DNA of 32,000 bases from Candidatus Saccharimonadota bacterium. GTDB lineage: Bacteria > Patescibacteriota > Saccharimonadia > Saccharimonadales > Saccharimonadaceae. Under the pieces are notes generated by a model, which worked only from the letters and a program-made list of their open reading frames with translations, made no database searches and was not told where the DNA came from. Position 1 is the stretch's first letter. The number at the start of each line of letters is the position of its first letter. The stretch lies in assembly GCA_000503915.1 (NCBI GenBank), contig CP006915.1, positions 120,001-152,000 of the forward strand, written 5' to 3'. The position numbers and the translations under genes are program-made. This document shows, in pieces, positions 158-21,102 of the stretch.

Positions 158-269
158 GACTAGTCGCTTCCTTGCCTCATGGGCGATTTGGTTACTATAT
201 CTAGATTACACGGTGAGAATAATATATGCAAGTATTCTAATATAGTAATACATGTGATATTATAAAGAT

Positions 270-1002: not shown

Positions 1003-1043
1003 AGCTTATGGCTTTCCTGTTATAGCGATGCTACACTAGGGGC

Positions 1044-1328
1044 ATGCAGTTAATTCTACTCACCCACATCATACTCCTCACCCTCTCGCTCGTAGCAACG
1101 GCCGGTATGATCGGCGCCCACTTACTTTCACATGCTATTCCCACAAAACTTATAGCACTTAATGCTGGCGGAACGCTGGTCGGACTGGGAGCCGGCGGCA
1201 TCTTGCTGCTTTTCAAGCCGCTCGGGCTCGACTGCCTGCTGCTCCTTGGCTATCTGCTTGTCTTCAGTGCAGTCCAAGCGTTTCTCTACAAAAAGAATTT
1301 ACCCCGCAATCTTGGGCTGGAAGTCTAA
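1044..1328 (+). CDS. small hydrophobic membrane protein, unknown function
   Basis: 94-aa ORF with about 3 predicted TM segments. No recognisable motif. Its 3' end overlaps the convergent Crp-family gene. Confidence 0.45.
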   Translation: MQLILLTHIILLTLSLVATAGMIGAHLLSHAIPTKLIALNAGGTLVGLGAGGILLLFKPLGLDCLLLLGYLLVFSAVQAFLYKKNLPRNLGLEV

Positions 1329-1967: not shown

Positions 1968-1996
1968 GATATGCTTACCTTCCTAAATCACTACAG

Positions 1997-2089
1997 TTGT
2001 ATTATGACAGGTGTTAGCTGTATTTTATACAGCGAATTGTAATATTGCTCACATTATTGCTCGATGAATGATTGTATTATGAAAGGTGT
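1997..2089. promoter_or_regulatory. divergent control region with two direct repeats and a 17-nt palindrome (candidate operator)
   Basis: TTGTATTATGACAGGTGT (1997-2014) and TTGTATTATGAAAGGTGT (2072-2089) match at 17 of 18 positions. Palindrome GCTGTATTTTATACAGC lies at 2017-2033 between them. Confidence 0.3.
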
Positions 2090-2095
2090 ACCGTT

Positions 2096-2365
2096 ATGAA
2101 CAACATCAACGCTAAGTGGAGGGTGAAGATGCAAGACTATAACGAAAGAGAACTTAAAAATAAGATCGATGCCTTTTTAACGCGTAAATTATCCGAGCGA
2201 CTCGGTTCGCCGCTCGGGTTTAAGGCCGACTACCTCGACCGCACGAAGGCAGTAGCTGCGCTACTGCTAACTCATAGTCGTACCTCCGCTAGAATACGCG
2301 GGCTCTCCCCGTTTAGAAAAGAGCATCCCGTCTCTGGCTCTGCTTCGCGCTACCTCGCTACTTAG
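2096..2365 (+). CDS. hypothetical small protein (89 aa); coding status uncertain
   Basis: ATG at 2096 preceded by GAAAGGTG. Followed by a strong intrinsic terminator. No recognisable domain, and the region is hairpin-rich. Confidence 0.35.
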   Translation: MNNINAKWRVKMQDYNERELKNKIDAFLTRKLSERLGSPLGFKADYLDRTKAVAALLLTHSRTSARIRGLSPFRKEHPVSGSASRYLAT

Positions 2366-2382
2366 CGAAGGCTATACTCCCT

Positions 2383-2420
2383 AAGACTGATCTTGTTGTT
2401 ACAAGATCAGTCTTTTCGTT
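2383..2420 (+). terminator. rho-independent terminator
   Basis: Perfect 14-bp stem AAGACTGATCTTGT (2383-2396) / ACAAGATCAGTCTT (2401-2414), 4-nt loop, then a T-rich tail. Confidence 0.8.
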
Positions 2421-2469
2421 ACGGCTCCTCTGCTTGCAGCCAGAAGTTCTGTACAGTAAGATTAGAGAC

Positions 2470-3024
2470 ATGAGAAAAACCATAAGCATGTCCGGCAATG
2501 AGCTTCTGCCTGCAAGGAACCGGCGACCGGGCGGCTTTACGATTGTTGAGCTCTTGATCGTTATTGTGGTGATCGCGATTTTAGCGGCAATTACGATCGT
2601 GGCATATAACGGTATCCAGACACGAGCAAAAAATACTAAAACAATTAATGCAACCGCGGCCTGGATTAAAGCCCTTAGGCTGTACGAGGCAGATAACGGC
2701 GACTACCCGACGGTGACTTCTTGCCTTGGTACGACCACTACTTATCCCGACAATACCCAATGCTGGAACAACGCGAGCTGGACCGTTAAGTCAAGTTTCT
2801 TAACCTTGATGCAGCCATATCTTTCTTCCTTCCCCGAACCAGATACAACCAATATCGACACCGTTAATACTCCACGGCGAGGAGCACTCTACACCATCAG
2901 CGGCGCCGTTAAATATGTATACATGAGCTTAATCGGTGTCACAAGCTGCCCTACCATGAGTATTCCTACCTATAGTGGCGGCAACACCGATCAAGGACGA
3001 TATTGCATTTACCAGCTCAATTGA
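2470..3024 (+). CDS. type IV pilin-like protein (prepilin-type N-terminal cleavage/methylation domain)
   Basis: Leader ends ...RRPGG then FTIVELLIVIVVIAILAAITIVAYNGIQTRA (class III signal plus alpha-1 helix). Start chosen at ATG 2470; ATG 2488 is also possible. Confidence 0.85.
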   Translation: MRKTISMSGNELLPARNRRPGGFTIVELLIVIVVIAILAAITIVAYNGIQTRAKNTKTINATAAWIKALRLYEADNGDYPTVTSCLGTTTTYPDNTQCWNNASWTVKSSFLTLMQPYLSSFPEPDTTNIDTVNTPRRGALYTISGAVKYVYMSLIGVTSCPTMSIPTYSGGNTDQGRYCIYQLN

Positions 3025-3053
3025 TACTTTCAGACTTTATAACCGGTAAACAG

Positions 3054-5456: not shown

Positions 5457-5830
5457 CGTGGTGCCCATCCGGCGATTGCCGCAATAAATCCGACAATTGG
5501 CAGCAGTGGTACAACGGCCCAAATAGCAATTGACACTATGCCAAACAGTGCCTGCACACCGAGCCAAACACTACCAACTAGTATGATGAAGCCGCGTACG
5601 AAAGCGCCGATAAAACGTGAGATGAGACGATCAACGAAGGCTCGCAATTTCAAACCGATCGGGCCATCAACTTTCCCGGCCGCTATCTGGCGGTAAGGAG
5701 CAAAGAGCGTCCGGACAAGCAAATTGATCGAAAAGTAATCCATTGTCCGCGCCAAACGTTCACGCACCCTCACGATATGTGCCTTCCAGCCAGCGCCATA
5801 CCACCACGAGAGAACCCACACAATTATCAT
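5447..5830 (-). CDS. small integral membrane protein, unknown function
   Basis: 127-aa ORF with TM segments at both ends. Its stop overlaps the start of the Clp-like gene by 10 nt, suggesting an operon. Confidence 0.6.
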   Translation of the reverse strand: MIIVWVLSWWYGAGWKAHIVRVRERLARTMDYFSINLLVRTLFAPYRQIAAGKVDGPIGLKLRAFVDRLISRFIGAFVRGFIILVGSVWLGVQALFGIVSIAIWAVVPLLPIVGFIAAIAGWAPRWT

Positions 5831-8380: not shown

Positions 8381-8397
8381 GACGGGGTGTGGCGCAG
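8381..8397 (+). repeat. 17-nt duplicate of the tRNA-Pro 5' end plus 2 leader nt (GACGGGGTGTGGCGCAG)
   Basis: Identical to 8492-8508. The sequence after it does not continue as a tRNA. Confidence 0.8.
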
Positions 8398-8493: not shown

Positions 8494-8569
8494 CGGGGTG
8501 TGGCGCAGTTGGTAGCGCGCGCGGTTTGGGACCGTGAGGTCGAAGGTTCAAGTCCTTTCACCCCGACCA
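8494..8569 (+). tRNA. tRNA-Pro (anticodon UGG), CCA encoded
   Basis: Hand-folded cloverleaf. Acceptor CGGGGTG/CACCCCG, D arm GCGC-AGTTGGTA-GCGC, anticodon arm CGCGG-TTTGGGA-CCGTG, T arm GAAGG-TTCAAGT-CCTTT, discriminator A, then CCA. Confidence 0.9.
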
Positions 8570-10353
8570 GAAGATATTTCATCTAATTCCGTCATCAAAT
8601 TGTATGGCGGTTTTAGTTTTATAACAGGGGTAGAATCATCTCCAGCACGTAGGTTCGCAACAAACTCACTGCATATAGTATCTAGAACCATGATGTCAGT
8701 AGTTTTTAGCATATTTAACACCTTAGAACGTGTAAGTTCGTAGAACTCTTGCTCAGTAGGTAATGCTGTATCAAGTTTAGCTAGCTCAGTCTTGTTACCT
8801 GTTATAGCCTCTTCGTCTAGGCGTATAAGCTGTTGATACTCCTCTAGCTTTCCCTCATGGTATTTCTTGTAGTCATCAGGACTGTTTACTTGAAACTCTT
8901 GATAACGTGCATACTGTTGTTCGTTATTCTTTTGTGACTGCTTAGCCTCAGCAAGTTTGCGGTTCAATATAGCCCTGTCAGAAGCAATACGCTGTTCGAG
9001 GCTGTTCTTGTACATACGGTATGCATGTTCACTCTTCTTAGTTAAGTGTCGTAGTTGCCACTCGATACCTGCTAGTACGTACTTGCCTCGGATACTCTTT
9101 GAGAGTGTTATATTGAGGTCTTTCTGCTCAGCTGTATTGTGTCGTAAACATGCCTTATTGCGACAGTAGAAACTAATAACCCATTTTCCAGTATTTTTAC
9201 CACGCTTAATAGGCGTGTGTTGAAATCTCATAGCGTTATCGCAGTAATCACAAATAACCTTGTTGTGTAGCAATCCATAGTCTAGACGTTGTGAACGGTT
9301 CGTCTTTACGCTTGTAGTTTTACCAAAGTCTTTAGCGACATCAGCATTTAGCTGTATATATTCATCTGCTGTTATAAGTGGCTTAAAGTTATACAGGTCT
9401 ATGAGGTTTGCGAGGTTGTCACCGTAGCTGTATAAGCCAGAGTAAAACGAATCTGTAAAGATGTTGCCGACCATCTGCTTAGTAACGTTTACCAGCTTAG
9501 GTTTGTCATCTTGGTCTTTACGCTCGGTTAGCTTAGCACTGTTCAAAAACTCTGCTATATCAGTATTATTCATACCGCCATACAATCGCATATCTACAGC
9601 TCTTCGAAGTAGATTCCAGTTGTATTCATCAGGTGTAAAGTATCCAGTTATCGAGTCTACATAGTAGCCCTTTTTCACTACGCCGTTATACTTACCCTCT
9701 ACGATATTACCAAGAGTACCACGCTTCACATCTACTGCTAGTTTGTCCGAGTATTGCTTTGATGTAGCAAACAAAATACCTAACATCATCTTGCCGTTTG
9801 CTGTGTTATCAAACTGGTAGGTCACAAAGGCGAGGTCTTGAATATCTTCGTGGTCAATCATTTCAATGACCTCACCAGCCTCCTTCATGTTACGGGATAA
9901 ACGGTCAGGCGACCACGATATAAGCCCGTGATACTTGCCAGTCTTAAATCCTAGTAGCATTTTGTCGAAAATAGGACGGTTGCCAGAAGTCTTGGCCGAA
10001 GCACTTTCTACGAATATATCCTCTTCACGAACCGTAACCTTTAACGTATTAGTGGCAAGTTTTATACATTCAGCTCGTTGGTCATCTAGTGAACGTACTT
10101 GCTTGGTTTCATCATCAGTAGACTTGCGTAGGTATATAGCGTAACGGCGTTTTTCTTTAGGCAGTATCTTTTTAGCCCCCTCGGTTGTTGCAGAGAAGTA
10201 GTCTAGAAGGTCATTGACACTACGTTCACTATTACCAAAGGCTTTATTGCGGTATTCAGATGTATATACATACTTTTCTTGTACACTTGCAAGCTCAGCC
10301 TCATCTGCGAGAACTTTAGTGCGTTTTTTACGATTAGTTGTACCTTTTGGCAT
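8548..10353 (-). CDS. large serine recombinase (integrase)
   Basis: Resolvase-type catalytic domain (YLRKSTDDE...SLDDQ, SWSPDRLSRN). Recombinase domain, zinc ribbon (CDYCDNAMRF...FYCRNKAC) and a long coiled-coil C-terminus. ATG 10353 is preferred over the TTG at 10380. The last 7 codons and the stop lie inside tRNA-Pro. Confidence 0.9.
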   Translation of the reverse strand: MPKGTTNRKKRTKVLADEAELASVQEKYVYTSEYRNKAFGNSERSVNDLLDYFSATTEGAKKILPKEKRRYAIYLRKSTDDETKQVRSLDDQRAECIKLATNTLKVTVREEDIFVESASAKTSGNRPIFDKMLLGFKTGKYHGLISWSPDRLSRNMKEAGEVIEMIDHEDIQDLAFVTYQFDNTANGKMMLGILFATSKQYSDKLAVDVKRGTLGNIVEGKYNGVVKKGYYVDSITGYFTPDEYNWNLLRRAVDMRLYGGMNNTDIAEFLNSAKLTERKDQDDKPKLVNVTKQMVGNIFTDSFYSGLYSYGDNLANLIDLYNFKPLITADEYIQLNADVAKDFGKTTSVKTNRSQRLDYGLLHNKVICDYCDNAMRFQHTPIKRGKNTGKWVISFYCRNKACLRHNTAEQKDLNITLSKSIRGKYVLAGIEWQLRHLTKKSEHAYRMYKNSLEQRIASDRAILNRKLAEAKQSQKNNEQQYARYQEFQVNSPDDYKKYHEGKLEEYQQLIRLDEEAITGNKTELAKLDTALPTEQEFYELTRSKVLNMLKTTDIMVLDTICSEFVANLRAGDDSTPVIKLKPPYNLMTELDEISSGRGERT

Positions 10354-10410
10354 ATATTGATTCCTACTAATATTGTACAAAACTTGTGCGGTAATGTAAA
10401 CTATTGTTAT

Positions 10411-10593
10411 ATGGAAAATGAACTACCAGAATATCTAACATTGCCCGAAGTGGTGAAGATATTAAAGGTGCACCCTAATACTTTACGTAACTGGGATAGG
10501 GACGGCACACTCAAGGCCATACGTATAGGCAAACGCAGCATACGCCGATGGAAAAAGTCGGATATTTTAAAGTTCATAGAGGCTGATAAGTAG
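10411..10593 (+). CDS. excisionase-family / MerR-like HTH DNA-binding protein (candidate recombination directionality factor)
   Basis: 60 aa, LTLPEVVKILKVHPNTLRNWDRDGTLKAIRIGKRSIRRWKKSDILKFI. Divergent from the recombinase with a 57-bp spacer. ATG 10411 lies inside track ORF 10279..10593. Confidence 0.8.
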   Translation: MENELPEYLTLPEVVKILKVHPNTLRNWDRDGTLKAIRIGKRSIRRWKKSDILKFIEADK

Positions 10594-10595
10594 TT

Positions 10596-11153
10596 ATGGC
10601 AAATAAGAAAGACGACTATATGGCGACTAACTCTCAAGTAATGCTTGCCACTACAAAGCCGTATATTGCTGGTGCAAAAATCCAACTAGAACGCTACCTT
10701 GAAGCGCAAAGAATAATGAAGACCCACAAGATGGTTTTGGGCGGAGGAATAGATAAATGCACCTATGAACTATCTGCACTACTTGAGCATCTAGATAGTA
10801 TAGAGGTGCAATTAAGGAACAGAGGCATATCATTGCCCGCGGGTGAAATAATTCGGCAATTCCGTAATCATTTGCGACACGATAGCAGAGGCGAAGAAGA
10901 CCGCAGTAATGGCAGACGAGGTCAGGCAATAGGTTTGAACGATAAATTATTGGTGCAAATAGTGTTTACTGACAGTGGTGTAAAAATGGGCTCAAACGAA
11001 CTGACAGCCAAACAAATAGACACCTACATTACCACCGCTGAAACGATAATGTGGGCAATGGTGCTGGGCGGCAAGCTGGACATTGACGGCGAAACAGTAA
11101 CTGTCTATCAGCAGTCTACTGATATAACAAATAAAAATAGTCCTGAGGTGTAA
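10596..11153 (+). CDS. hypothetical protein with an RNxxxH (Rx4H) motif, possible HEPN-like domain
   Basis: 185-aa ORF starting 2 nt after the HTH gene stop. The helical N-terminal half ends in IIRQFRNHLRHD. No other recognisable motif. Confidence 0.6.
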   Translation: MANKKDDYMATNSQVMLATTKPYIAGAKIQLERYLEAQRIMKTHKMVLGGGIDKCTYELSALLEHLDSIEVQLRNRGISLPAGEIIRQFRNHLRHDSRGEEDRSNGRRGQAIGLNDKLLVQIVFTDSGVKMGSNELTAKQIDTYITTAETIMWAMVLGGKLDIDGETVTVYQQSTDITNKNSPEV

Positions 11154-12019
11154 TGGACGGTCTATTTAATAGTAGAGAGATTGCGGTAGGGTTATGGTTG
11201 GCGGTGCTAATAATTTTCGTGGCTAGTAAAAAAGCTGTGCGTTCATCATTTGGAGCCGTTCTTAAAACGTTCTTCACACCAAAGATAATCATACCGCTAC
11301 TGCTATCTTTTACTCCGAGTGTGTTGGTCGTATGGCTGTTGGCATATCTAAATCTTTGGGACTTATCTGTACTTAAAGAAACAATCTATTGGGTTATAGG
11401 TACAGGCATCATAATGTTCGGTAAGTTTGATGGTGTTAAAGATTTGAAGTCACTATACAGACAGACCGCAAAAGAAACCCTAGCATTAGTTGTTGTGCTG
11501 GAGTTCATTATTTGGCTCTATGTATTCCCCTTATGGGCTGAACTACTCCTAGTACCATTCGTAACTCTTATAGTGCTGTTGGCGACAGTGGCAAAGTATA
11601 TGAAAACAGATGGCATAGAATTAACACGCAAGGTGCTAAATGGTACGCAAGTATTCATTGGTCTACTCATACTTTTATTTGCGCTCATAGGCTTCGTAAA
11701 GAGCCCCGTGGCGTTATTTACGTTTCAAAACCTAGAGCTATTCTTATTGCCTATAGTCTTATCGCTTACCTATGTACCCTCCGTATACTTCATAGCGTTG
11801 TATAGCAAGTACGAGCTAGTGTTTCTTCGTATTGACTACCCCATGAAACTCAATCGTAAAAGTAAACGAGCTATCAAACTAGCCGCAACAAGGCGTTGTG
11901 GTCTGAGTGTGTACGTTACGGGCGAAATGATACGACATTTGGCAATCAACTTAACTACCGACACCACAAAGGCTCAAGCTCTAAAAATCATAAAGACTTT
12001 TAACCCAAGACAACCGTAA
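11153..12019 (+). CDS. polytopic integral membrane protein, unknown function
   Basis: 288 aa with about 7 hydrophobic segments and a basic C-terminal tail. Its start overlaps the previous stop (TAATG), indicating translational coupling. Confidence 0.7.
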   Translation: MDGLFNSREIAVGLWLAVLIIFVASKKAVRSSFGAVLKTFFTPKIIIPLLLSFTPSVLVVWLLAYLNLWDLSVLKETIYWVIGTGIIMFGKFDGVKDLKSLYRQTAKETLALVVVLEFIIWLYVFPLWAELLLVPFVTLIVLLATVAKYMKTDGIELTRKVLNGTQVFIGLLILLFALIGFVKSPVALFTFQNLELFLLPIVLSLTYVPSVYFIALYSKYELVFLRIDYPMKLNRKSKRAIKLAATRRCGLSVYVTGEMIRHLAINLTTDTTKAQALKIIKTFNPRQP

Positions 12020-12042
12020 TTCCTTTAGCGTAGAGATTACCC

Positions 12043-12080
12043 CAACATTGCGAGAAACGCCCCTGTGACTGATTCGAATT
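12043..12080. repeat. left copy of a 38-nt imperfect inverted repeat flanking the helicase-nuclease gene
   Basis: CAACATTGCGAGAAACGCCCCTGTGACTGATTCGAATT matches the reverse complement of 16157-16194 at 28 of 38 positions (hand alignment). It includes the 12-nt block GAGAAACGCC.C plus ATTCGA. Confidence 0.6.
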
Positions 12081-12090
12081 AGGCGTTTTT
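12055..12090 (+). terminator. probable intrinsic terminator of the HTH / RNxxxH protein / membrane-protein operon
   Basis: AAACGCC (12055-12061) pairs with GGCGTTT (12082-12088), with a T run to 12090. The 20-nt loop is long, so confidence is moderate. Confidence 0.55.
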
Positions 12091-12130
12091 ATTTCTGAGA
12101 TGACTTATACCTCAATCGAACTGATTTTAT

Positions 12131-12138
12131 TGTATAAT
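12131..12138 (+). promoter_or_regulatory. candidate extended -10 promoter (TGTATAAT) for the helicase-nuclease gene
   Basis: TGTATAAT lies 29 nt upstream of ATG 12167. No obvious Shine-Dalgarno sequence. Confidence 0.4.
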
Positions 12139-12166
12139 TTACCCTAGAATAGCTTGCTTATTTATT

Positions 12167-15100
12167 ATGACAAAAATACCAGTATCTATCAGCCAACTAG
12201 CAAAATACGGACTTGATTATGTAAGCCTAATTTCAAGTAGTGCCTCCAGAAGCCGACCCGTTAAGACTGAGCAGATGGATACCGACCTACTCTCTATCCC
12301 AGACGTGATTTTCAAAAGCGAAGTTGACTCCATAACAATTGATTTAGTCACCTCTCTAGATAAACAGTTCGACCCGAGCATACCGAACGAGGAAAAGAGC
12401 GACGAGCAACGACAAGCTGAGTGGCGTATTGAACGGGACAGAGGTATCTTAAATAAGATTCAAGAAATAGATACAAAAATTAGAACCGATGAATATACGA
12501 AACGGGTAGTCCTGCAAACTGGCTTTATATCATTTGAGGCAAAACGCTACCTTGAGTCTGAATTCAATGAAGAGTACGAGAAATACGAGGCTCCGTTGTT
12601 TCAAATTCCAGTTGCGGCAATAAACTTCAAATATAATCCTGATGGCGTAACAGTAACTATCGACTTACCTGATAATTATGTAGAGATTTTAAACGGCCCA
12701 TTAAAGAACTTCTTGCCTCAGCAGTATTTTGATAAGGTGTTTAAGTTTATAGCGGATTCAGAGGCGGAAGAGAAAACAATGCTTCCGCTTGCCGATGATT
12801 TTATCGAAGACTTGTGGTCGGCAATAAGAGTTCAGTTAGATGGATTAGATGCGAAGTCAATATCTGAAGCTCCTAGTTTTGCAACCAGCATTGTTGCAAT
12901 CACGAATAAGACAAATCACTTCCTTGCCGAAGACCTTAAGGCTATAGCTGCACTAGAAGATGAAGACTTGCTAGAAACGTCATTAGGCAGTTGGGTGTCA
13001 GATGAAGATATGGCAATTGAACAGGTAGTTTCTGATGACGGTAGTACGGAAATATTCTTTCCGTTTGATTATGACAAGTATCAGCTAAAAGTCTTAGGCA
13101 TTACAGCAAATAAAGCGGTTATTGTTGAAGGTCCTCCAGGAACTGGAAAATCACAGACCATCTCAAACTTACTTGTACATCTTGCAGCCACGGGTAAACG
13201 GGTGCTATTTGCTAGTCAAAAAGACCAAGCTATACGTGGAGTCAAAGATAAGCTAAAAGCATTGGATGTGCCATTTTTGTATGGGTATATTCCTGACAAA
13301 ACATCTAAGCTGTACACAGAAGAAGATGAAAAAGACAGTGCCGCAAACACACTACTTGCACTCAATAGAGAGTTCCAAAAAGGAAAGGTCGGTGACTTAA
13401 AAGAACCTCTGTCGTTACTTGCCAACCGTTCAAATATTTTTGTAGAGAACTTAAATAACGAACGTTCTATCTATGCCCTACTAGAAGAGCGTAGAAGCTT
13501 GAGCTACCTTGATTCTTTTCATCCGTACGAAATTGATAGCGGATGGTATAGCCAGTGTGGCTTATTAGAAGACACTATTAATGGATTAGAGGCCAGTGTT
13601 AACAAATATGAAAAGGCTCATGAGAAGTTTTTAAGGGCAGCCAACAAGAAGTTTGAAAATCTAGAATTAGATTACCAGGCGACTATAGACTCAATTGAAA
13701 GTATCTACACATACTTTAAGGAAAATATGCCCGAACGGTCTGGTTGGATAGGTAGTAAGGTTAATGAAATGAAATTGCGTAATGCACTGAAAGAGAATGG
13801 CCGCAACCTATTGCAGGAAATTTTCGTAGAAGTTGAAAAGGTACTATTCTCTGACAATACAAAGTCTGCCCGATTGCAGCTATTAGATAGTCTGTCGGAT
13901 TACTTTGTTTACAGTAGTGAGCTACAGGCAATAACTGAAAGTCGTTCTTCACTTAACGAATTACTCTCAGGCAAAGAAATATCACCGACTACGTACGCCT
14001 CTCTCAAAAAGGTAATCTTGGATAATGGTAGTAAGGAGAAGGTGTTCGGGGATTTAACTAGGTATAACGAAATCACCGAGCAGGTAGAAGAAATGTCGTT
14101 GTACTCGGCGAATGAGCTTAACCGAGAAATCAAGGATATTCGCAAGTTTTACAGAACCAATATCACAAATTACGTACGTAACCGTATCCTAACCAGAGTT
14201 GGTGAAGCGAATAACAGTAAGGACGTAAGGGCTACCCTAGCTCAGGTTGCCCGAAGTCTTACAAAGAGTAAGAAAGCCAATAAGACATTCGACAGATTGA
14301 AGCACAACGAAGACAATTTTAGTGCCATGTCTAAGGTCTTGCCAATCTGGATGATGAGCCTAGATGATGTTAGTCGTATAGTTCCACTCGAGAAGAATGC
14401 ATTTGATTATGTAATTATCGATGAAGCATCACAGTGTAATTTTGCATATGCGTTTCCAGCAATGTTCCGTGCTGAACATACAATTTTCTTTGGTGATACT
14501 TTGCAGATGCGTGATGACAACATTATGTTTAAGTCGAATGACCAACTTAATGCTATTGCTAAGAAGCATAAGATACCTGAGGTTTATCAAATTAAGGCGG
14601 AAGAAGACACGGTAAAATCCGTTATGGATATTGCTCATCTTAATGGCTTTAAAACAACAACTCTCAAGTATCACTATCGCTCACCGAGGGAGCTTATAGG
14701 CTTCTCTAATGAATCTTTCTACGAACCAATAGGTCGAAAACTAGAGGCAGTTAACGACAATATCGTACCCTACAAAGATACTGGGCGTGTTCTTCTCAAC
14801 CATATTGTTAAGCCAAATGCAGATGAAGAGCTGTCCGACAGGACAAATCTAGCCGAGGTACGTAAAATTCAGGAGTTGGTTGACGAGATTAAAAGTGACC
14901 CCGTACTGAAGGATAAGTCCATTGCTGTTCTAACCTTCTTTAACGAGCAAGCTGAGCTGATAAGAAACGCCATTAAACACGAAGATATTAAGGTCTCTAT
15001 AATTGACGGTATTCAGGGTGATGAACGTGATATCGTAATCTATTCATTTGTTATTAAAGACCCTAGCGACAAGAAGCGTTACATTGCCCTAACTGGTGAA

Positions 15101-16051
15101 GGTGGCGAGATTCGTAAAGATATTGCAGCTGGTCGTGTAAACGTTGCCTTTAGCCGAGCTAGATTACAGGTTCATACCGTTACATCGTTAGCTCCTGAGC
15201 TATGGCCTGAGGGTATTTGGATTAAGCGATACCTGGAGTATGTCGAAAATAGCGGTATAGTGAACCGTCGTCACAGTAAGGCAGAGCAGCAGTTTGACTC
15301 TAATTTTGAGGAAAAGGTGTTTAGCTATTTGGCGAAAGAGCTGGATGCTAGCGAGTATACCTTAGAAACGCAGGTAGAATCTCTTGGGTTTAAAATTGAT
15401 TTAGTAGTTTGCCGTAATGGCAAGAAACTAGCAATCGAGATGGATGGCCCTTCGCACTTTGAAGGTGGAGATGGTCAGGTATACGTAAAGGATGACTGGG
15501 ACAGGCAGGGTGCTCTTGAAACTGCTGGATGGAACTTTTACCGCATTTCATACTTTGATTGGACGAAAGACCAACAGGCTGAGCATAAAGCACTCAGTGA
15601 ATATATACAGCAGTACTTCGATGATGAAAGTGTTTCAAGCAAAACTACCGTCCTAAAAGAACTCGAAAAAGAAACAGTGGCACCAGAAGAATCGCCTAAG
15701 GATATGTATGTTACCGACTTTTCAGAAGAGAGTGTAGATAACGTTACTCCTGTCCAAGCTGTTCCTGTGACCAGGAATGTGAAGCGCACTAATACTGCCA
15801 AGACTACTCCCGCCAAGCCGACCTTCTCGATAGGAGACCGTGAGGTTAACCAAGAGGACTTAGAAAGATATCTTAGTACTCATCAACAGAGTTATATCGA
15901 AATACGATACCAGTCTATGCGTGCAGGGTCAGCAAAATACTGGAGAACTATACGTCTAGATAGCTACGATGGCACGTACATGTATTCCAAGCAGGATAAC
16001 GCACCTTATCCAATAAAATATCGACGAGACCGAGTAATAGAGTTTAGATAG
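12167..16051 (+). CDS. 1294-aa DUF4011-like N-terminus + Upf1/DNA2-like SF1 helicase + DUF559/Vsr-fold endonuclease-like domain + WYL-like C-terminal domain
   Basis: Helicase motifs EGPPGTGKSQT (I), YVIIDEASQC (II), FFGDTLQM (III), YHYRSPRELIGFSNESFY, IDGIQGDERDIVIYSFV (V) and GRVNVAFSRARLQVH (VI). Nuclease-like GFKIDLVVCRNGKKLAIEMDGPSHF...DRQGALETAGWNFYRISYFDW. The tail IEIRYQSMRAGSAKYWRTIRLDSYDGTYMYSKQDNAPYPIKYRRDRVIEF follows the WYL pattern (tentative). Confidence 0.9.
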   Translation: MTKIPVSISQLAKYGLDYVSLISSSASRSRPVKTEQMDTDLLSIPDVIFKSEVDSITIDLVTSLDKQFDPSIPNEEKSDEQRQAEWRIERDRGILNKIQEIDTKIRTDEYTKRVVLQTGFISFEAKRYLESEFNEEYEKYEAPLFQIPVAAINFKYNPDGVTVTIDLPDNYVEILNGPLKNFLPQQYFDKVFKFIADSEAEEKTMLPLADDFIEDLWSAIRVQLDGLDAKSISEAPSFATSIVAITNKTNHFLAEDLKAIAALEDEDLLETSLGSWVSDEDMAIEQVVSDDGSTEIFFPFDYDKYQLKVLGITANKAVIVEGPPGTGKSQTISNLLVHLAATGKRVLFASQKDQAIRGVKDKLKALDVPFLYGYIPDKTSKLYTEEDEKDSAANTLLALNREFQKGKVGDLKEPLSLLANRSNIFVENLNNERSIYALLEERRSLSYLDSFHPYEIDSGWYSQCGLLEDTINGLEASVNKYEKAHEKFLRAANKKFENLELDYQATIDSIESIYTYFKENMPERSGWIGSKVNEMKLRNALKENGRNLLQEIFVEVEKVLFSDNTKSARLQLLDSLSDYFVYSSELQAITESRSSLNELLSGKEISPTTYASLKKVILDNGSKEKVFGDLTRYNEITEQVEEMSLYSANELNREIKDIRKFYRTNITNYVRNRILTRVGEANNSKDVRATLAQVARSLTKSKKANKTFDRLKHNEDNFSAMSKVLPIWMMSLDDVSRIVPLEKNAFDYVIIDEASQCNFAYAFPAMFRAEHTIFFGDTLQMRDDNIMFKSNDQLNAIAKKHKIPEVYQIKAEEDTVKSVMDIAHLNGFKTTTLKYHYRSPRELIGFSNESFYEPIGRKLEAVNDNIVPYKDTGRVLLNHIVKPNADEELSDRTNLAEVRKIQELVDEIKSDPVLKDKSIAVLTFFNEQAELIRNAIKHEDIKVSIIDGIQGDERDIVIYSFVIKDPSDKKRYIALTGEGGEIRKDIAAGRVNVAFSRARLQVHTVTSLAPELWPEGIWIKRYLEYVENSGIVNRRHSKAEQQFDSNFEEKVFSYLAKELDASEYTLETQVESLGFKIDLVVCRNGKKLAIEMDGPSHFEGGDGQVYVKDDWDRQGALETAGWNFYRISYFDWTKDQQAEHKALSEYIQQYFDDESVSSKTTVLKELEKETVAPEESPKDMYVTDFSEESVDNVTPVQAVPVTRNVKRTNTAKTTPAKPTFSIGDREVNQEDLERYLSTHQQSYIEIRYQSMRAGSAKYWRTIRLDSYDGTYMYSKQDNAPYPIKYRRDRVIEFR

Positions 16052-16156
16052 CCAGCATTAAAGGCAATGTTTCCTTGAATCATCCCCGAGCGTGATTTAA
16101 ATTAGATGTTTTATTTCCAGAATAGGTGTAGCATCAACTTTTGATTTAGAATGCAA

Positions 16157-16194
16157 GAATCGAATCGCCCCCAGAGGCGTTTCTCCCAACTTTG
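16157..16194. repeat. right copy of the 38-nt imperfect inverted repeat flanking the helicase-nuclease gene
   Basis: GAATCGAATCGCCCCCAGAGGCGTTTCTCCCAACTTTG. See the left copy at 12043-12080. Confidence 0.6.
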
Positions 16195-16209
16195 ATATAT
16201 AATCAGAGA

Positions 16210-16350
16210 GTCTAGATTCAACAATTAGAGTATGAGGTCAACAGACCTTTCGTTTGAACCGTAAATACGGCAACTCCTTGCGAAAGCAGTTAGGTTCAAA
16301 CCTGATTGTTGAGTCTAGACAACCCTAGTGAGGGGTTGTCGTTTTATTTT
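16210..16350 (+). ncRNA. candidate structured RNA (riboswitch-like leader or small RNA) ending in an intrinsic terminator
   Basis: A 16-bp closing helix pairs 16210-16225 with 16305-16320 (one G-U). Inside it: hairpin GGTC-AACA-GACC (16236-16247), a 9-bp helix GTTTGAACC/GGTTCAAAC (16252-16260 with 16293-16301), and a GAAA-tetraloop hairpin TGC-GAAA-GCA (16279-16288). TATAAT at 16198-16203 lies just upstream. Confidence 0.5.
16318..16350 (+). terminator. rho-independent terminator immediately upstream of the next gene's RBS
   Basis: GACAACCC (16318-16325) pairs with GGGTTGTC (16333-16340), followed by GTTTTATTTT. AAGGAG lies at 16353-16358 and the ATG at 16369. Confidence 0.75.
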
Positions 16351-16368
16351 AAAAGGAGAAATAACAAA

Positions 16369-16926
16369 ATGGTCACAAAAGACTCAAAACATTCAGGTGG
16401 TCAGGGCTTAGCTACGGCATCACTAACGTTAGGCATCATATCAATACCGCTACTAGGAGTAGGTGCAATTCTTGGTATTCTGGCGATTATCTTTGGGGCT
16501 GTATCATTGCGACAGAACCAAGGTCGTAAAAAATCCGTAGCCGGTATTATTACAGGAAGTATTGGTATTCTGATTGCCATCCTCTTACTGGTCGTATATC
16601 TTGCAGTTCCATCGTTACAAGCAAACAATAACGACACAGCACGTAAAGCAGACGTTACGAATTTAACAAGCGATGTGATTGACTACCAAGCAAACAATAG
16701 AGGCAAGATGCCTAGTAAGTACGAGCTATCGAAAGCTAAGTTAGTTCAAGTTTCAGACATTAAACAGGCTGCTTATGATGGCTACGGGTATGACGGTAAC
16801 CCTAAGCCTACGCTAGATACAGCAGTCTATACAATTGGCGAAAATTGTAACGGCGAGAAAGCAAATCGTAACTTCTCCATAACAGTCCTACTAGAGAACA
16901 ATACGGTATATTGCGTAGGTTCTTAG
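16369..16926 (+). CDS. membrane-anchored pilin-like protein (DUF4190-type double-TM N-terminus fused to a pilin-like globular region, no prepilin signal)
   Basis: N-terminus GLATASLTLGIISIPLLGVGAILGILAIIFGAVSL plus a second TM. Then SLQANNNDTARKADVTNLTSDVIDYQANNRGKMP aligns by eye with the post-helix region of the resident pilins (GIQARARDAQRKNDIAIITKAMELYYIDNGSYP). The G|FTxxE cleavage/methylation motif is absent. Confidence 0.8.
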   Translation: MVTKDSKHSGGQGLATASLTLGIISIPLLGVGAILGILAIIFGAVSLRQNQGRKKSVAGIITGSIGILIAILLLVVYLAVPSLQANNNDTARKADVTNLTSDVIDYQANNRGKMPSKYELSKAKLVQVSDIKQAAYDGYGYDGNPKPTLDTAVYTIGENCNGEKANRNFSITVLLENNTVYCVGS

Positions 16927-16992
16927 ACGCTATATAAGCTATAGCTGTACATAACCAAAAACTGCTAGAAACCCGCCGATTTACAGGGGTAT

Positions 16993-17099
16993 AAGGTATG
17001 GATTTTTCATTTCTGCTTATTGTACGCTTATGGTACAAAGTAGTGCCCCACTGAACAGAGCTTGAACTGTAGGCTTGGCTATCCCTACCACACCCCACC
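16993..17099. repeat. copy A of a ~108-nt island repeat
   Basis: AAGGTATGGATTTTTC...AAAGTAGT...TAGGCTTGGCTATCCCTACCACACCCCACC. The ends and central block are shared with copy B. The internal hairpins differ in sequence but are retained. Confidence 0.8.
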
Positions 17100-17143
17100 A
17101 ATGTGTAGTTCTATATCTGCATAAACGTTATAATTACAATAAT

Positions 17144-18571
17144 ATGGCGCAAGAGACAATATTTTATTCATGGCAATCCGACAACTCGAAGACTCGAAGT
17201 TACGTAGAGCGTGCCCTAAAGAAAGCCGTAGAGAGCATTGCAGATGACCCTAGCATCGAATCAGCACCTCGCATAGACAAAGATACACAGGATGTCGCAG
17301 GAGCGGTTCACATTGTTGATACTATAAAAAAGAAGATTGATGAGTGCGGCATATTTCTTGCAGACGTATCGCTTGTTGATAAAGCAGCTTCTGGTCGAGC
17401 CATCGTCAATCAAAATGTAATGTTTGAACTTGGTTACGCTATCGGCAAGCATAGCGAGTCTAGAGTCATTATGGTGGCTAACGCAGACCTGGGTGATGTA
17501 AAGAACCTTCCTTTTGACATCTCACACCATAGAGTCATTCAATTCTCTCCATCCGCCGACCCTAAAGCAACAAAACTCCAGGCTTCACTAGAATCTGCTA
17601 TCAATATTCATCTGCAAGCATTAGCCGTACAAAACAAAGAATCATTGGTGACTTCGGAAAAGGAAAAGCTACTTACTGCTATAGATAATGGCAAGCCAAC
17701 TAGAACTCTCGCAAAGAAGTATTTTGAGACTGCGTATAGTCAGTATCTAGGTTTATCCCCAGGTAGGTATAAGGACGGCAACCACCAGCATTACGCCTCC
17801 GAGGTCTTCGAGGCATATGAGAAGACGAAACATATTGCACTAGAGCTACACGAAGTATTTGAGGTAGCAGCAGAACACAAAAAGGAAGATGTCTTACTGC
17901 AAGCATATAAATCTATTCAAATTGTTTCACAGTACTATGACGTTATGCCCGAGGATGGTGGACAGCTAAGTGAAGTATCGAAGGATTATTACATCCTCGT
18001 AGTTAATGAAATCGTCTCACTGTTAATGGGTAGTATTAGCCATGAAAAGCTCTGGGGACTCATGCAAGAAATAGCATCTACAAAGCTAAGCAGAGCGGAC
18101 ATGTACGAAGAAACAAGAACCTTAGACAGGTTATACGGGCATCCTCAAAACCTTCTCAACTACTACAAAGAGCTAAAGAGCGTAAACTATGTGATTCCCA
18201 TGACTCCACTCATTGCAGAACGTTTCTCCGATAGTCAGGATGTTCTTCAAGCCTACATAGACGGAAGTATGCTGCGTTACTTCCTTGTAGGCAGCTACCC
18301 GTGGATTGTAGGCTTGCTATTAGGGAACTCTTGGACAAAGCATATCCCCGAATTCTTCGCCGAGTTTAAGAAGGTATCATTCGTTAATGCGATGATGAAA
18401 GTTACAGGCGAAAAAACAGTAGATGAATTCCGTTCAAACATATGGAAACAGGCATCTGCCGACCTTGCGAACTGGAGCTACCCCAATGACAATCTGCTGC
18501 CAGCACTTAAGTTTGTGGGCATAGAGACAGAGGGTGACATAGCCAAAAACCAGCAAGTAATTTCGGTATAA
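17144..18571 (+). CDS. TIR-like / nucleoside 2-deoxyribosyltransferase-like N-terminal domain protein with a ~300-aa helical C-terminal domain of unknown function
   Basis: N-terminus IFYSWQSDNSKTR...IFLADVSLV...NQNVMFELGYAIGK...RVIMV resembles the TIR-like fold of COG4271/Cap12-type proteins, recalled from memory. TATAAT at 17129-17134 is 9 nt from the ATG (near-leaderless). Confidence 0.7.
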   Translation: MAQETIFYSWQSDNSKTRSYVERALKKAVESIADDPSIESAPRIDKDTQDVAGAVHIVDTIKKKIDECGIFLADVSLVDKAASGRAIVNQNVMFELGYAIGKHSESRVIMVANADLGDVKNLPFDISHHRVIQFSPSADPKATKLQASLESAINIHLQALAVQNKESLVTSEKEKLLTAIDNGKPTRTLAKKYFETAYSQYLGLSPGRYKDGNHQHYASEVFEAYEKTKHIALELHEVFEVAAEHKKEDVLLQAYKSIQIVSQYYDVMPEDGGQLSEVSKDYYILVVNEIVSLLMGSISHEKLWGLMQEIASTKLSRADMYEETRTLDRLYGHPQNLLNYYKELKSVNYVIPMTPLIAERFSDSQDVLQAYIDGSMLRYFLVGSYPWIVGLLLGNSWTKHIPEFFAEFKKVSFVNAMMKVTGEKTVDEFRSNIWKQASADLANWSYPNDNLLPALKFVGIETEGDIAKNQQVISV

Positions 18572-18582
18572 GTATTGAGAAA

Positions 18583-19299
18583 ATGAAGCCTCATAAAAAT
18601 ATTGGGCTACATCCGACTAATGCACTTAAGATAGCATTAAAGCTCTTCGATAATAAGCAAACCACTAAGGAAAAAATTAGTCTACTCTTGAACAATCGCT
18701 CTGTCAGTAATCTAGAGTCGGTTGATACACCTAAAGATTTTGCGAGCGGTAAAACGATTGATATTAATGCTGGTGAATTACTTGGTATAGGTAGTGTTGC
18801 GGCGTATTACAACTGGATGAGTGAAGAGGCTGGAACAGGCAATACGTATCAAGCAGTGGTTGGTATTGAGGATGCTGGAAAAAACCAAATCGAAAGTCAG
18901 CTTTCGGATGGGGCAATATATCACGACCAAGTCAATGGAAAAATTCTGGCTCAGCAAGTAATGACCCAAGGCTACTATCCTGATAAATGGATAACTAGCC
19001 AAGATGTTATTGATGCAGTAAAAAAGAAGTGTGCAGAACGACACAAGTATCACGAGAATTGCATTCTGATTGTTAATGTCTTCGGAGACAAGGTTAATGT
19101 TGACCGCAAAGTAATCTATGACGAGATAAGCAAGCTCTCTGAACCGTTTAGCGATACATACATGGTAGTTTACGGCTTGCCATCGCTGAAAATGGCACAC
19201 GTCAGTTTTATAAGTGAACCACCTGATACGCGTGGGTTAGCTCTCAAGCTGGAGCGGCACGAATACGAAGACATCTGGCATTTCAACAAGATGGACTAA
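18583..19299 (+). CDS. hypothetical protein (238 aa), partner of the TIR-like gene
   Basis: Starts 11 nt after the previous stop. No motif recognised. Confidence 0.65.
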   Translation: MKPHKNIGLHPTNALKIALKLFDNKQTTKEKISLLLNNRSVSNLESVDTPKDFASGKTIDINAGELLGIGSVAAYYNWMSEEAGTGNTYQAVVGIEDAGKNQIESQLSDGAIYHDQVNGKILAQQVMTQGYYPDKWITSQDVIDAVKKKCAERHKYHENCILIVNVFGDKVNVDRKVIYDEISKLSEPFSDTYMVVYGLPSLKMAHVSFISEPPDTRGLALKLERHEYEDIWHFNKMD

Positions 19300-19407
19300 A
19301 GGTATGGAGTTTTCGTTTTTCGTTTATTGCGTACAAACGGCATAAAGTAGTACTACCTCTAATAATACTTATACTACTAGGCTTGTCCGACCCTACCACA
19401 CCCCACC
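19299..19407. repeat. copy B of the ~108-nt island repeat
   Basis: AAGGTATGGAGTTTTCG...AAAGTAGT...TAGGCTTGTCCGACCCTACCACACCCCACC. Begins on the stop codon of the 238-aa gene. Confidence 0.8.
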
Positions 19408-19458
19408 TAAAGCTAATAAACCTATATATTTAGGTTCAACATATTTCTCGTTAATTAA

Positions 19459-19662
19459 CTATTTAGATTTCTCTATACCTAGTTCTTTGAATGTAGGTCG
19501 TTTTTGGCGTTTACGCTGAGGTGCATTTAGTATCATCTCACGTCTTTCAACGCTCTTCTTAACCTTACTAACACTACCTGCAACAGGTGTACTAAACGTC
19601 CTATCGTCCCAGTTAGATGTATCTGTAGGTGATTCTTGAGGTGGTAGTTTTGTATCACTCAT
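19459..19662 (-). CDS. small basic hypothetical protein (67 aa)
   Basis: ORF with a lysine/arginine-rich C-terminus (KVKKSVERREMILNAPQRKRQKRPTFKELGIEKSK). Followed on the minus strand by hairpin AACCTA-N6-TAGGTT. Confidence 0.5.
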   Translation of the reverse strand: MSDTKLPPQESPTDTSNWDDRTFSTPVAGSVSKVKKSVERREMILNAPQRKRQKRPTFKELGIEKSK

Positions 19663-19830
19663 TAACTCTACTATAGCAAAAACTCCATACTAGAAGCACG
19701 TTCAGACTGTACAAGGTTATCAAGCCGTGAGTTTAATGACTCTAGCCCATTCTTTACGCTACCGAAGTTAACTAGCAGGGTATGCAGGCTTGTGAGTATA
19801 GGTTCGTTTGAGGACGCAGTACGCCGACCA

Positions 19831-19866
19831 TATAAAATAAGATGCTAGATGGCATCTTATTTTATA
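19831..19866. terminator. bidirectional rho-independent terminator
   Basis: Perfect 15-bp stem TATAAAATAAGATGC (19831-19845) / GCATCTTATTTTATA (19852-19866) with a 6-nt loop. A/T runs on both sides. Lies just downstream of the minus-strand pilin gene. Confidence 0.8.
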
Positions 19867-19886
19867 TTACTGATTTCTGGTTGTTT

Positions 19887-20342
19887 TTAACCACCGACAA
19901 CAAAATCATATCCCCAGGCTGTTGGTCCATAAGGCGTGTTGGCACACAGAGTAGCACCAGAACTTGACCAGGTAATAGACACTTCACTCGCACCCTGACC
20001 TGAGACATATTTGTATTGTTTGCCGTATTGCTGTACGAGTAAAGCATAGCCTGTGCCTGAAGCCGCGCATAATATCACGTTACTCCCTACTGGGCTAAAA
20101 GAGAAGCGGGCTCCCATCGTGGCCGCTTGCGGCCAACTAGTTGGATACGTTCCGTTTTCAGCATTGTACAATTCAAGTTTTTTTGAGACGTTAGACAAGT
20201 CACTTTGCATCGATGCATCCCTAGCTCGTTGCTGGATACCGTTGTATGCAACAACAGTAATAGCCGCTAAAACAGCGATCACTACGATTACTATCAGGAG
20301 TTCAACAATCGTAAAACCTGTGTGCTTTTTTATAACACTCAT
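19887..20342 (-). CDS. type IV pilin (prepilin-type N-terminal cleavage/methylation domain)
   Basis: MSVIKKHTG then FTIVELLIVIVVIAVLAAITVVAYNGIQQRARD. Confidence 0.85.
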   Translation of the reverse strand: MSVIKKHTGFTIVELLIVIVVIAVLAAITVVAYNGIQQRARDASMQSDLSNVSKKLELYNAENGTYPTSWPQAATMGARFSFSPVGSNVILCAASGTGYALLVQQYGKQYKYVSGQGASEVSITWSSSGATLCANTPYGPTAWGYDFVVGG

Positions 20343-20373
20343 GGCTATATTTTAGCAGGTATAGCCCTGAAAT

Positions 20374-20994
20374 TTACGCTATTGTGTTTGCCAGCTCTTC
20401 TTTGACACTTGTCAGGCTTGCTTTATATCCCGCCTGGTCGTCGAGAAAGTCGGCATAGTGCGGCAGCGAGGGAAAGAGCGAGATGACCCGCTCTGGCTGA
20501 AGCCACTCCGGCCGGCCGATGCCATACCAAGCATGAATGCTTGAGTAAGGATGAGCCTGCCAGTCTTTTGGATCGAGATGGATATAGCGGCTGACAAGTC
20601 GCACCTGTTCATCATCAGATAAGCGCGAGGCTCGGTACGTACCTTCAAGCAGTGCACCGGACAAGCCGTATCGTTTATTAAAATAACGGCTATAGCTTGC
20701 TAGTACACTCCGCATCAGCTGCGTCATCCCACCTTCGTCTGCCTGATAAACAAGCAGATGAAAATGGTTTGGCATCAGACAGTAGCTAAGGAGTTCTACC
20801 TGCCCACGTAGATGAGGATAGGGGTGATGATTGCGGTCATATTGCCGCATCAGCGAGAGACTGCGACTAAAAAGCGTGAGAAACATCTCAAAATCGGCTT
20901 CATCTCGATAAATTTTCTGACGACCGCGACCGCGAGCATATACGTGGTAAATACTGTCAGTGATATCTATTTTGAGAACATTTCTCGAGGGCAT
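20374..20994 (-). CDS. IS200-like Y1 (HUH) transposase family protein, RayT/COG1943-like
   Basis: HUH motif YCLMPNHFHLLVYQ. Candidate catalytic Tyr in RYIHLDP. Single gene with no tnpB. Different short hairpins lie on each flank (20343-20366; 21027-21055). Confidence 0.8.
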   Translation of the reverse strand: MPSRNVLKIDITDSIYHVYARGRGRQKIYRDEADFEMFLTLFSRSLSLMRQYDRNHHPYPHLRGQVELLSYCLMPNHFHLLVYQADEGGMTQLMRSVLASYSRYFNKRYGLSGALLEGTYRASRLSDDEQVRLVSRYIHLDPKDWQAHPYSSIHAWYGIGRPEWLQPERVISLFPSLPHYADFLDDQAGYKASLTSVKEELANTIA

Positions 20995-21102
20995 ATATGT
21001 ATTATATAATAATCCAATAAAATAAGAGGTCTAACCTTTTGGCATACCTCTTCATTGTAATCTCAATGTAAACATCCTGTTATTGTTCGGATCATTGGAG
21101 TT

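Follow-up and report, generated by a model that had tools for sequence, protein, structure and literature searches.

Introduction

The large serine recombinases (LSRs) of phages, such as phiC31, Bxb1, A118/LI and SPbeta (SprA), combine a resolvase catalytic domain, a recombinase domain and a zinc ribbon with a coiled coil, act at a short core, and use an attP half-site that is longer than that of attB, with its outer motif shifted by 5 bp (PMC3783163). Here, we describe an island at a tRNA-Pro(TGG) gene of a Candidatus Saccharimonadota bacterium, within a 32,000-nt stretch of its genome (positions 120,001 to 152,000 of contig CP006915.1; hereafter the window). Its recombinase shares these features of the phage LSRs, yet is only 23-27% identical to them, resides in a small island without phage genes, and has attP inside the integrase gene. 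Very probably, 8570-19830 constitutes an integrative island, belongs to a family specific to Saccharibacteria, and is moved by an LSR with attP inside its own gene.

The staphylococcal cassette chromosome (SCC and SCCmec) elements, which use the Ccr LSRs, are non-phage, non-conjugative cargo islands located at the 3' end of a conserved housekeeping gene, which is not inactivated. They form tandem or composite arrays at one site and carry variable cargo on a conserved recombination module. As an LSR-driven integrative island, the element described here belongs to a known kind and works most like SCC elements, being site-specific, cargo-variable and arranged in tandem arrays. Unlike it, SCC targets rlmH/orfX rather than a tRNA, has internal, unsplit recombinase genes, and belongs to a different phylum and LSR clade. 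Islander-type islands with tyrosine integrases also insert at the 3' end of tRNA genes, keep the tRNA functional, carry defence or resistance cargo and accrete in tandem; they duplicate a long tRNA fragment, whereas the present family shares only 6-9 nt with its target and uses a serine recombinase. At mycobacterial tRNA sites, common cores are typically 25-76 bp, and the serine-integrase sites in that survey all lie within open reading frames (ORFs), which are disrupted (PMC8092301). In contrast, the window island targets the CCA end of a tRNA and leaves the target intact.

Integrase genes that contain their own attachment site have been described among tyrosine recombinases. The myxophage Mx8 integrates at the 3' end of a tRNA gene, and the two forms of its integrase gene are called intP and intX. 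Its attP lies within the int coding sequence, and integration gives int a new 3' end, altering the integrase without inactivating it (PMC6070905). With attP inside the integrase gene and a 3' end changed by integration, Mx8 is the nearest bacterial precedent; it differs in being a phage of a Myxococcus host with a tyrosine recombinase. The SSV-type 'suicidal' integrases of archaeal viruses and plasmids likewise have their site within the integrase ORF, form a compact module, and are partitioned by integration; they are tyrosine recombinases found exclusively in Archaea according to a review (PMC8371274). The window enzyme is instead a serine recombinase of a bacterium of the candidate phyla radiation (CPR), loses only its C-terminal ~50 codons, and resembles the SSV type in the way it works without being a member of that family.

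Three features thus set the island apart: a tRNA CCA-end target that is left intact, an attP inside the recombinase gene, and a CPR host. An earlier note on this DNA, made from the sequence alone, had remarked that such islands are little described in CPR-type genomes; our literature searches agreed, yielding no account of tRNA-gene islands with a serine recombinase from Saccharibacteria or CPR bacteria.

The Island and Its Ends

The island occupies 8570-19830 (11.26 kb), between the CCA end of an intact tRNA-Pro(TGG) gene (8494-8569, + strand; ARAGORN; Rfam 66.5 bits; aligned with relatives) and a host terminator at 19831-19866. This bidirectional hairpin, which constitutes the B' side of attB and is displaced by 11.26 kb from the tRNA, has a perfect 15-bp stem and a 6-nt loop, with a folding energy of about -18 kcal/mol on either strand (z = -7.5 and -6.5). 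A pilin gene (19887-20342, - strand) converges on it, and the displaced hairpin is predicted to terminate this gene still. The GC content is 0.411 within 8570-19830, versus 0.499 in the left flank and 0.517 in the right flank.

The heptamer CCGACCA that ends the tRNA (core copy 1, 8563-8569, + strand) recurs at 19824-19830 (core copy 2, + strand), and no more than these 7 nt of tRNA-Pro are found there. The tRNA, both heptamers, the terminator that begins at the base after the second of them, and the lower GC content of the segment had all been reported in the earlier note, and we confirmed each of them. The note had also taken the heptamer as the attachment core. By itself, the 7-bp repeat is uninformative: counting both strands, the window has 11 copies of CCGACCA (expected 2.9), one of which lies within the island, at 9467. 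Its significance comes from comparative evidence, and the relatives bear out the predicted ends and core. In the six to seven islands compared, attL and attR overlap by 6-9 nt, and the family-wide common core is CGACCA (8564-8569), consisting of the discriminator base, CCA and one stem base.

The left arms carry a second shared element. The B arm of attB and attL is formed by the last 26 nt of the tRNA (8544-8569, + strand; AGGTTC-N13-CCGACCA), and the P arm of attP and attR is the 31-nt sequence AGGTTCGTTTGAGGACGCAGTACGCCGACCA (19800-19830, + strand; AGGTTC-N18-CCGACCA). The pattern AGGTTC-N19-CGACCA has a single match in the window, at 19800-19830 (expected 0.00).

Two other placements of the ends were rejected. 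A crossover within the tRNA body, by which the tRNA would receive a new 3' end from the element, does not fit a P arm that is 5 nt longer and has only AGGTTC and the 6-7-nt core in common with the tRNA. A 17-nt exact copy of the tRNA 5' end (GACGGGGTGTGGCGCAG), located 111 nt upstream of tRNA-Pro(TGG), was considered as a second attachment site; this copy (8381-8397) aligns with the 5' end of a tRNA-Pro(CGG) gene that precedes tRNA-Pro(TGG) in two relatives (L019, L052; loci found in our searches are numbered with the prefix L). It begins the segment 8381-8457, which has a CACCGCGCCGA stretch at the place expected for the acceptor 3' end, and we read this segment as a probable decayed tandem tRNA-Pro(CGG) pseudogene. 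Rfam detected nothing in the island or around the tRNA except the tRNA itself.

A Recombinase Gene Split by Integration

The recombinase gene in its integrated, truncated form (8548-10353, - strand) encodes 601 aa and matches PF00239 (Resolvase; E = 1e-17, residues 81-222), PF07508 (Recombinase; 23.9 bits versus a cutoff of 21.1) and the integrase family phrog_95; an alternative start gives a 610-aa ORF (8548-10380, - strand). The catalytic motif YLRKSTDDE and the zinc-ribbon cysteines C368, C371, C397 and C402 (CxxC...CxxxxC) are invariant in the family alignment. An AlphaFold 2 (AF2) model places long coiled-coil helices at 442-527 between beta strands, and the best match among solved structures (PDB) is the SPbeta integrase. 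The protein thus has the domain architecture of an LSR, with a catalytic domain, a recombinase domain and a zinc ribbon with a coiled coil.

As the earlier note had stated, this gene runs into the tRNA, where its TGA stop (complement of 8548-8550) lies in the T loop. The note had taken the ORF as the gene, which is in fact truncated: the element itself encodes 8570-10353, the core and the tRNA supply the codons of the last 7 residues (GRGERT*), and the last 50 codons of the gene are found at the far end of the island. There, a 3' tail exon on the - strand (19674-19830, stop 19671-19673; ...NEPILTSLHTLLVNFG...MEFLL) continues the gene for 50 codons past the core; it is in frame with 8570-10353 only once attL and attR have been joined. 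Integrated recombinase ORFs of the family lack a stop of their own and end in the tRNA at a chance stop (GRG, GRGDRI, GRGERT, GRGERTRTFDLTVPNRAR...).

When attR was joined to attL at the core, the ORF continued in frame for 51-54 residues and ended in FLL* or FLF* in 8/8 islands, giving full-length proteins of 646-661 aa (647 aa for the window). The tail exon is present at every attR examined. Residues including L35, L38, L41, L42, F73 and L74 are invariant among the eight reconstructed circles, and the tail is kept even in recombinases 57-60% identical to that of the window and in a subclade that inserts at tRNA-Val. Immediately beyond lies the gene of a small conserved backbone protein, p67 (19459-19662, - strand; motif LPPQ.S..DTSNWD.R), which starts 8 nt past the tail-exon stop in the window and 7-9 nt past it in 6/8 islands (window, L050, L084, L086, L091, L098). 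It is co-linear with the recombinase gene only in the free form.

A free form of a relative was found in contig MWWH01002080.1 (L090), which encodes a recombinase 60% identical to that of the window. An exact 127-bp terminal overlap closes this contig into a 4553-bp circle, which contains neither a tRNA nor host genes, has an intact attP (AGGTTCGATTGCAGTATCTGTAGTTCGACCA|GTAGATAC...), and encodes an uninterrupted 652-aa recombinase ending in ...QFLL*, followed by a p67 homologue. This intact gene and the in-frame tails of the integrated islands place the attachment site within the integrase ORF; the gene is partitioned on integration, which removes its last ~50 codons.

Recurrence in Other Hosts

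Homologous LSR genes (30-93% identity) overlap the 3' end of tRNA-Pro(TGG), in the same orientation, at 12 further distinct loci (L014, L020, L050, L061, L084/85, L086, L087, L088 and L092-L095; four GTDB and nine metagenome loci, of which L085 duplicates L084). Sequence conservation between the islands starts immediately 3' of the CCA, and the distal end is a 31-nt arm, AGGTTC-N19-CGACCA, in all islands with a readable far end. The P arm of the window recurs unchanged in L084 and L086 and with one mismatch in L098, and L020, L050, L088 and L091 retain its architecture. The arm is followed by the host terminator in the window, L020, L050, L088, L098 and, at tRNA-Val, L091, and by the start of another island in L084, L086 and L098. 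The breakpoints proposed in the earlier note thus agree with those of other islands of the family, which start after the CCA and end at CGACCA ahead of the host terminator.

Tandem arrays with a P arm joined directly to the P' arm of another island occur at L084/L085 (reverse complement (rc) 14901-16422), L086 (rc after 6464) and L098 (rc 1-4062). These joins fuse a recombinase to the tail exon of its neighbour, e.g., P0001 (649 aa), indicating that integration into hybrid sites happens in this family.

The closest comparison is with the 4.9-kb island of L084, located on a 975-kb contig from a different host. DNA similarity to the window is limited to 8494-10593, two short intergenic pieces and 19337-19830, and stops exactly at 19830; the P arms are identical (31/31 nt) within a surrounding 494 nt of 81% identity. 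The backbone proteins are well conserved (recombinase 92%, HTH17 83%, p67 84% identity), as compared with 55% for AhpC, 64% for ClpB, 65% for MurT and 69% for GatD of the two hosts, and the GC content of the islands is ~0.41 regardless of that of the host. This difference between backbone (83-92%) and host (55-69%) identities and the constant island GC indicate that the element is horizontally mobile, with ends at 8570 and 19830.

In L089 and L091, a 59%-identical subclade occupies the CCA end of tRNA-Val(GAC), with an island of 4064 bp. It keeps the 26/31-nt arm geometry, and its core is CCACCA instead of CGACCA, matching that tRNA. A second, distant island type is found at the same tRNA-Pro site in L014, L018, L024 and L064 (recombinase 30% identical in L014), with a different hairpin, (A)GAACCC...GGGTTC(T), at the same place after the CCA.

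The recombinase family comprises at least 868 clusters at E<=1e-20, which carry generic names only. No relative was found in the IMG/VR viral contigs, and the LSRs in phage and plasmid records are only 23-27% identical to the window recombinase; on these grounds, prophage and plasmid readings were dropped. The PHROGs matches of island proteins are restricted to integrase, excisionase/helix-turn-helix (HTH) DNA-binding, helicase and unknown-function families. PHROGs and family scans of these proteins detected no phage, conjugation or replication genes, and Pfam and PHROGs revealed no tyrosine integrase in the island.

The Native Site

The order ClpB-MurT-GatD-AhpC-tRNAPro(TGG)-variable-RNaseY-PilB-PilC is found in about 50 Saccharibacteria loci. 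A strong hairpin, usually of the form (T)AGAAAAA...TTTTTCT(A), lies within 15 nt (<=15 nt) after the CCA in 41/44 related sites without this recombinase family, and the empty site L007 (...CCGACCA|TATAAAAAAGATATCGCTTGATATCTTTTTTATA) closely resembles 19831-19866 of the window. In relatives, the CCA is thus followed directly by the terminator, and deletion of 8570-19830 would recreate this standard arrangement, as the earlier note had predicted. The flanks of the island are from a Saccharibacteria (TM7) genome; no same-species genome is present among the GTDB representatives, in which the best GatD identity is 78%.

MurT and GatD of this Saccharibacterium share 62-66% identity with their counterparts in Arthrobacter, Pseudarthrobacter and Paenarthrobacter (L054, L058-L083), nearly as much as with those of many other Saccharibacteria. 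This similarity suggests gene exchange between epibiont and actinobacterial lineages.

Within the deposited data, the island proteins match only one recorded contig, of 12.2 kb, which spans the island (exact-protein look-up, ENA). This contig ends at ~20627, within an IS200-like gene; for the right-flank proteins (GDPD, IS200-like), no exact-protein record was found. An independent assembly of the left flank, Logan contig L001 (SRR6486448_47), stops exactly at the tRNA CCA end, 8569. An assembly-graph branch at attL would give such an end, which hints at heterogeneity in the population.

Attachment-Site Logic and a Possible Terminator Exchange

Both left arms carry the motif AGGTTC, and its distance from the core is 5 bp greater in the P arm (31 nt) than in the B arm (26 nt). 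This relation between left arms, B (AGGTTC-N13/14-core) and P (AGGTTC-N18/19-core), holds in all islands, including the tRNA-Val subclade. In the LI integrase system, the motif for the zinc-ribbon domain is shifted 5 bp outward in attP relative to attB (PMC3783163), and the common cores of serine systems measure 5-8 bp (PMC8092301). The 6-9-nt overlap and the 5-bp AGGTTC offset are thus typical of LSR attachment sites. The agreement of the core with the target tRNA in the tRNA-Val subclade confines the crossover to the final six bases of the tRNA gene.

The P' arm of attP (8570-8620, + strand) lies inside the C-terminal coding region of the recombinase. It contains a conserved hairpin (8583-8595 / 8604-8616) followed by the T-rich sequence TTTTAGTTTT, and scored as terminator-like in a scan. 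The predicted fold is stronger in the + (tRNA) sense (-12.7 kcal/mol) than in the - sense (-6.7). Across 16 islands, 91.8% of the cells are paired, with two compensatory pairs and U-G pairs that are valid only in the + sense, and the distant L014-type islands carry, at this position after the CCA, a hairpin with an unrelated sequence. We infer that the P' hairpin, carried by the element, serves the tRNA as a terminator in place of the displaced one; alternatively, it could be a palindrome bound by a protein.

Proposed Mechanism and Alternatives

The free form would be a circle, in which attP (P arm, CGACCA core and P' arm) lies in the recombinase gene ~50 codons before its stop. The enzyme would recombine attP with an attB composed of the last 26 nt of tRNA-Pro(TGG) and the terminator, with the crossover in CGACCA. 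Integration would leave the tRNA intact, put the P' hairpin behind it and carry the host terminator to the far end of the island, leaving a 601-aa truncated protein at attL, with the 50-aa tail exon and p67 stranded at attR. Precise recombination between attL and attR would rebuild both the 647-aa gene and the tRNA-terminator unit. Saccharibacteria are naturally competent, with few genetic tools (PMC10633639); given this competence, transfer between cells by natural transformation, through uptake of an excised circle followed by integration, is plausible.

Several observations weigh against this account. Exact searches of the JGI metagenomes for the predicted empty junction 8569|19831 (AGTCCTTTCACCCCGACCA joined to TATAAAATAAGATGCTAGAT), a check that the earlier note had suggested, gave 0 matches, and neither the empty site nor the circular junction of the window's own island was found. 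The circular contig MWWH01002080.1 is only a 60%-identical relative, and could be an assembly of identical tandem copies. A cognate FLL tail was found in 0/60 of the closest recombinase clusters, which implies that free forms are rare in assemblies. In the AF2 model of the full-length protein, the tail is helical with a predicted local distance difference test score (pLDDT) of 31-48, from which no packing is inferable. AGGTTCG also encodes the conserved N-E-P of the tail, and its conservation may be partly protein-coding. The crossover is placed no finer than the six bases CGACCA, and the right half-sites P' and B' display no convincing shared motif.

What the split does for the element is a separate matter. 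We tentatively propose, at slightly below even likelihood, that it acts as a directionality and commitment switch. The full-length enzyme, with its helical tail and co-transcribed p67, would exist only on the free circle and drive integration; the integrated, tail-less enzyme would be altered, being excision-prone or largely inert; and the same event would swap the tRNA terminator. By analogy with the Mx8 integrase, truncation may change the activity or stability of the enzyme and bias the element toward staying integrated.

Alternatively, with the same island and ends, the split could be functionally neutral: compactness alone would explain why attP overlaps the gene's 3' end, the 601-aa enzyme would be fully active, and directionality would be set only by a conventional factor. 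We regard this as possible, if rather unlikely. In its favor, the truncated protein keeps all canonical LSR domains, the tRNA-encoded tails vary freely (GRG, GRGDRI, GRGERT...), and an excisionase-type HTH gene adjoins the recombinase gene. This gene (10357-10593, + strand; gene call in L003), divergent from that of the recombinase, encodes a small HTH_17 DNA-binding protein of 78 aa that matches phrog_66, 'excisionase and transcriptional regulator' (5.6e-10), is conserved in L084 (83%) and L088, and is a candidate directionality factor or regulator. However, the HTH_17 protein has no match in islands L020, L050 and L061 and is therefore not present in all islands, and the 50-aa tail is maintained at fixed length, in frame and with invariant residues across 57-60%-identical recombinases and a change of target. 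The conservation of the tail through this divergence and change of tRNA argues for a function specific to the free form.

A third possibility is a 'suicidal', one-way integrase, in which the truncated enzyme would be inactive and movement would occur only with a full-length gene in trans or with one rebuilt at a tandem P|P' junction. This is the situation described for the archaeal SSV-type integrases (PMC8371274), and it is consistent with the tandem arrays in L084, L086 and L098 that fuse a recombinase to its neighbour's tail, and with the rarity of free forms in assemblies. We consider it improbable. Only the last ~8% of the protein is lost, not the catalytic part, and the changed C-terminus of the Mx8 enzyme altered the integrase without abolishing activity (PMC6070905). 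Moreover, the near-identical backbone in hosts that differ by ~30-45% in housekeeping proteins, together with the circular relative, indicates that the family does leave chromosomes.

The view that there is no discrete mobile element, only a low-GC native or decayed region with a chance CCGACCA, or one with its true right end at ~21100 that includes the pilin and IS200-like genes, could appeal to the frequency of the heptamer in the window, the intermediate GC content of 19831-21100 (0.452) and the continuation of the ENA contig to 20627, but is already contradicted and has next to no likelihood, given that 19830 is the exact end of both the P arm and the tail exon in several host contexts, that a terminator such as the one at 19831 normally accompanies the tRNA in relatives, and that no junction other than 19830|8570 closes the recombinase ORF in frame.

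Cargo and Neighbouring Features

The cargo lies between the recombinase and HTH_17 genes on one side and p67, the tail and the P arm on the other. In the window, it begins with two genes (10596-12019, + strand; 185 aa and 288 aa) without a family match, which are absent from the L084 island. A 1294-aa SF1 helicase (12167-16051, + strand; AAA_11/AAA_12 in Pfam) follows, fused to an MTES_1575 restriction-endonuclease-like domain; in PADLOC, it matches PDC-S37, a candidate defence system (3.5e-71). Next are a DUF4190 membrane protein (16369-16926, + strand; Pfam; 185 aa as called in the ENA contig), a 475-aa protein with a CAP12/Pycsar-type TIR domain (17144-18571, + strand; PF10137 3.7e-6; weak matches to TIR effectors in PADLOC), and a 238-aa protein without a family match (18583-19299, + strand). 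The 185-aa, 288-aa and 238-aa proteins without a family have no match in Pfam, PADLOC or PHROGs. Sister islands encode an OLD-family ATPase-TOPRIM protein, an HNH nuclease, HATPase_c_3, DUF4145 and ANT(2''). From these domain matches, the cargo appears defence-like and variable between islands.

The L088 island (rc 121-5668) contains an aminoglycoside 2''-nucleotidyltransferase-like gene (PF10706 1e-29) and two further genes that resemble, by eye only, a short-chain dehydrogenase and an alpha/beta hydrolase. The cargo of the family is thus not limited to defence genes.

Several non-coding sequences accompany the cargo genes. A conserved module of ~130-190 nt, which ends in ...TAGGCTTGGC.GACCCTACCACACCCCACC, occurs twice in the island (16954-17105 and 19298-19420) and also at cargo-gene boundaries in L086 (rc 5153-5343) and L084 (rc 13178-13260). 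Rfam gave no match to this module, which may be a promoter or leader carried along with cargo cassettes, or else an RNA. Upstream of the helicase gene, a stretch of 69 nt (12034-12102) is also present in the L084 and L086 islands, and a 35-nt imperfect inverted repeat (12043-12077 / 16160-16194) brackets the helicase-nuclease gene. These two sequences could represent cassette boundaries for cargo exchange.

In the right flank, the pilin gene is followed by an IS200-like Y1 transposase gene (20374-20994), and the GC content of 19831-21100 is intermediate (0.452). The region 19887-20994 may be an older acquisition or a repeat.

Significance

If the split is indeed a directionality switch, the enzyme would, going by the review of archaeal recombinases, be the first serine integrase that partitions itself and the first bacterial system of this type. 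It would also be a landing system at the tRNA CCA end native to CPR bacteria. The self-splitting design, called exclusive to archaeal tyrosine recombinases, would be extended to bacterial serine integrases (PMC8371274). The family would offer a natural test case for site recognition by LSRs, with one tRNA T-arm motif in both arms at a 5-bp shift, and for a specificity that was retargeted from tRNA-Pro to tRNA-Val within the family. Combined with its attP of ~60 bp and the tRNA-Pro attB, which is universally conserved, the enzyme could serve for single-copy integration in Saccharibacteria (PMC10633639). For the biology of these bacteria, the islands represent an unnamed family of CPR mobile elements, with at least 868 recombinase clusters, that shuttles defence and resistance genes between Saccharibacteria species.

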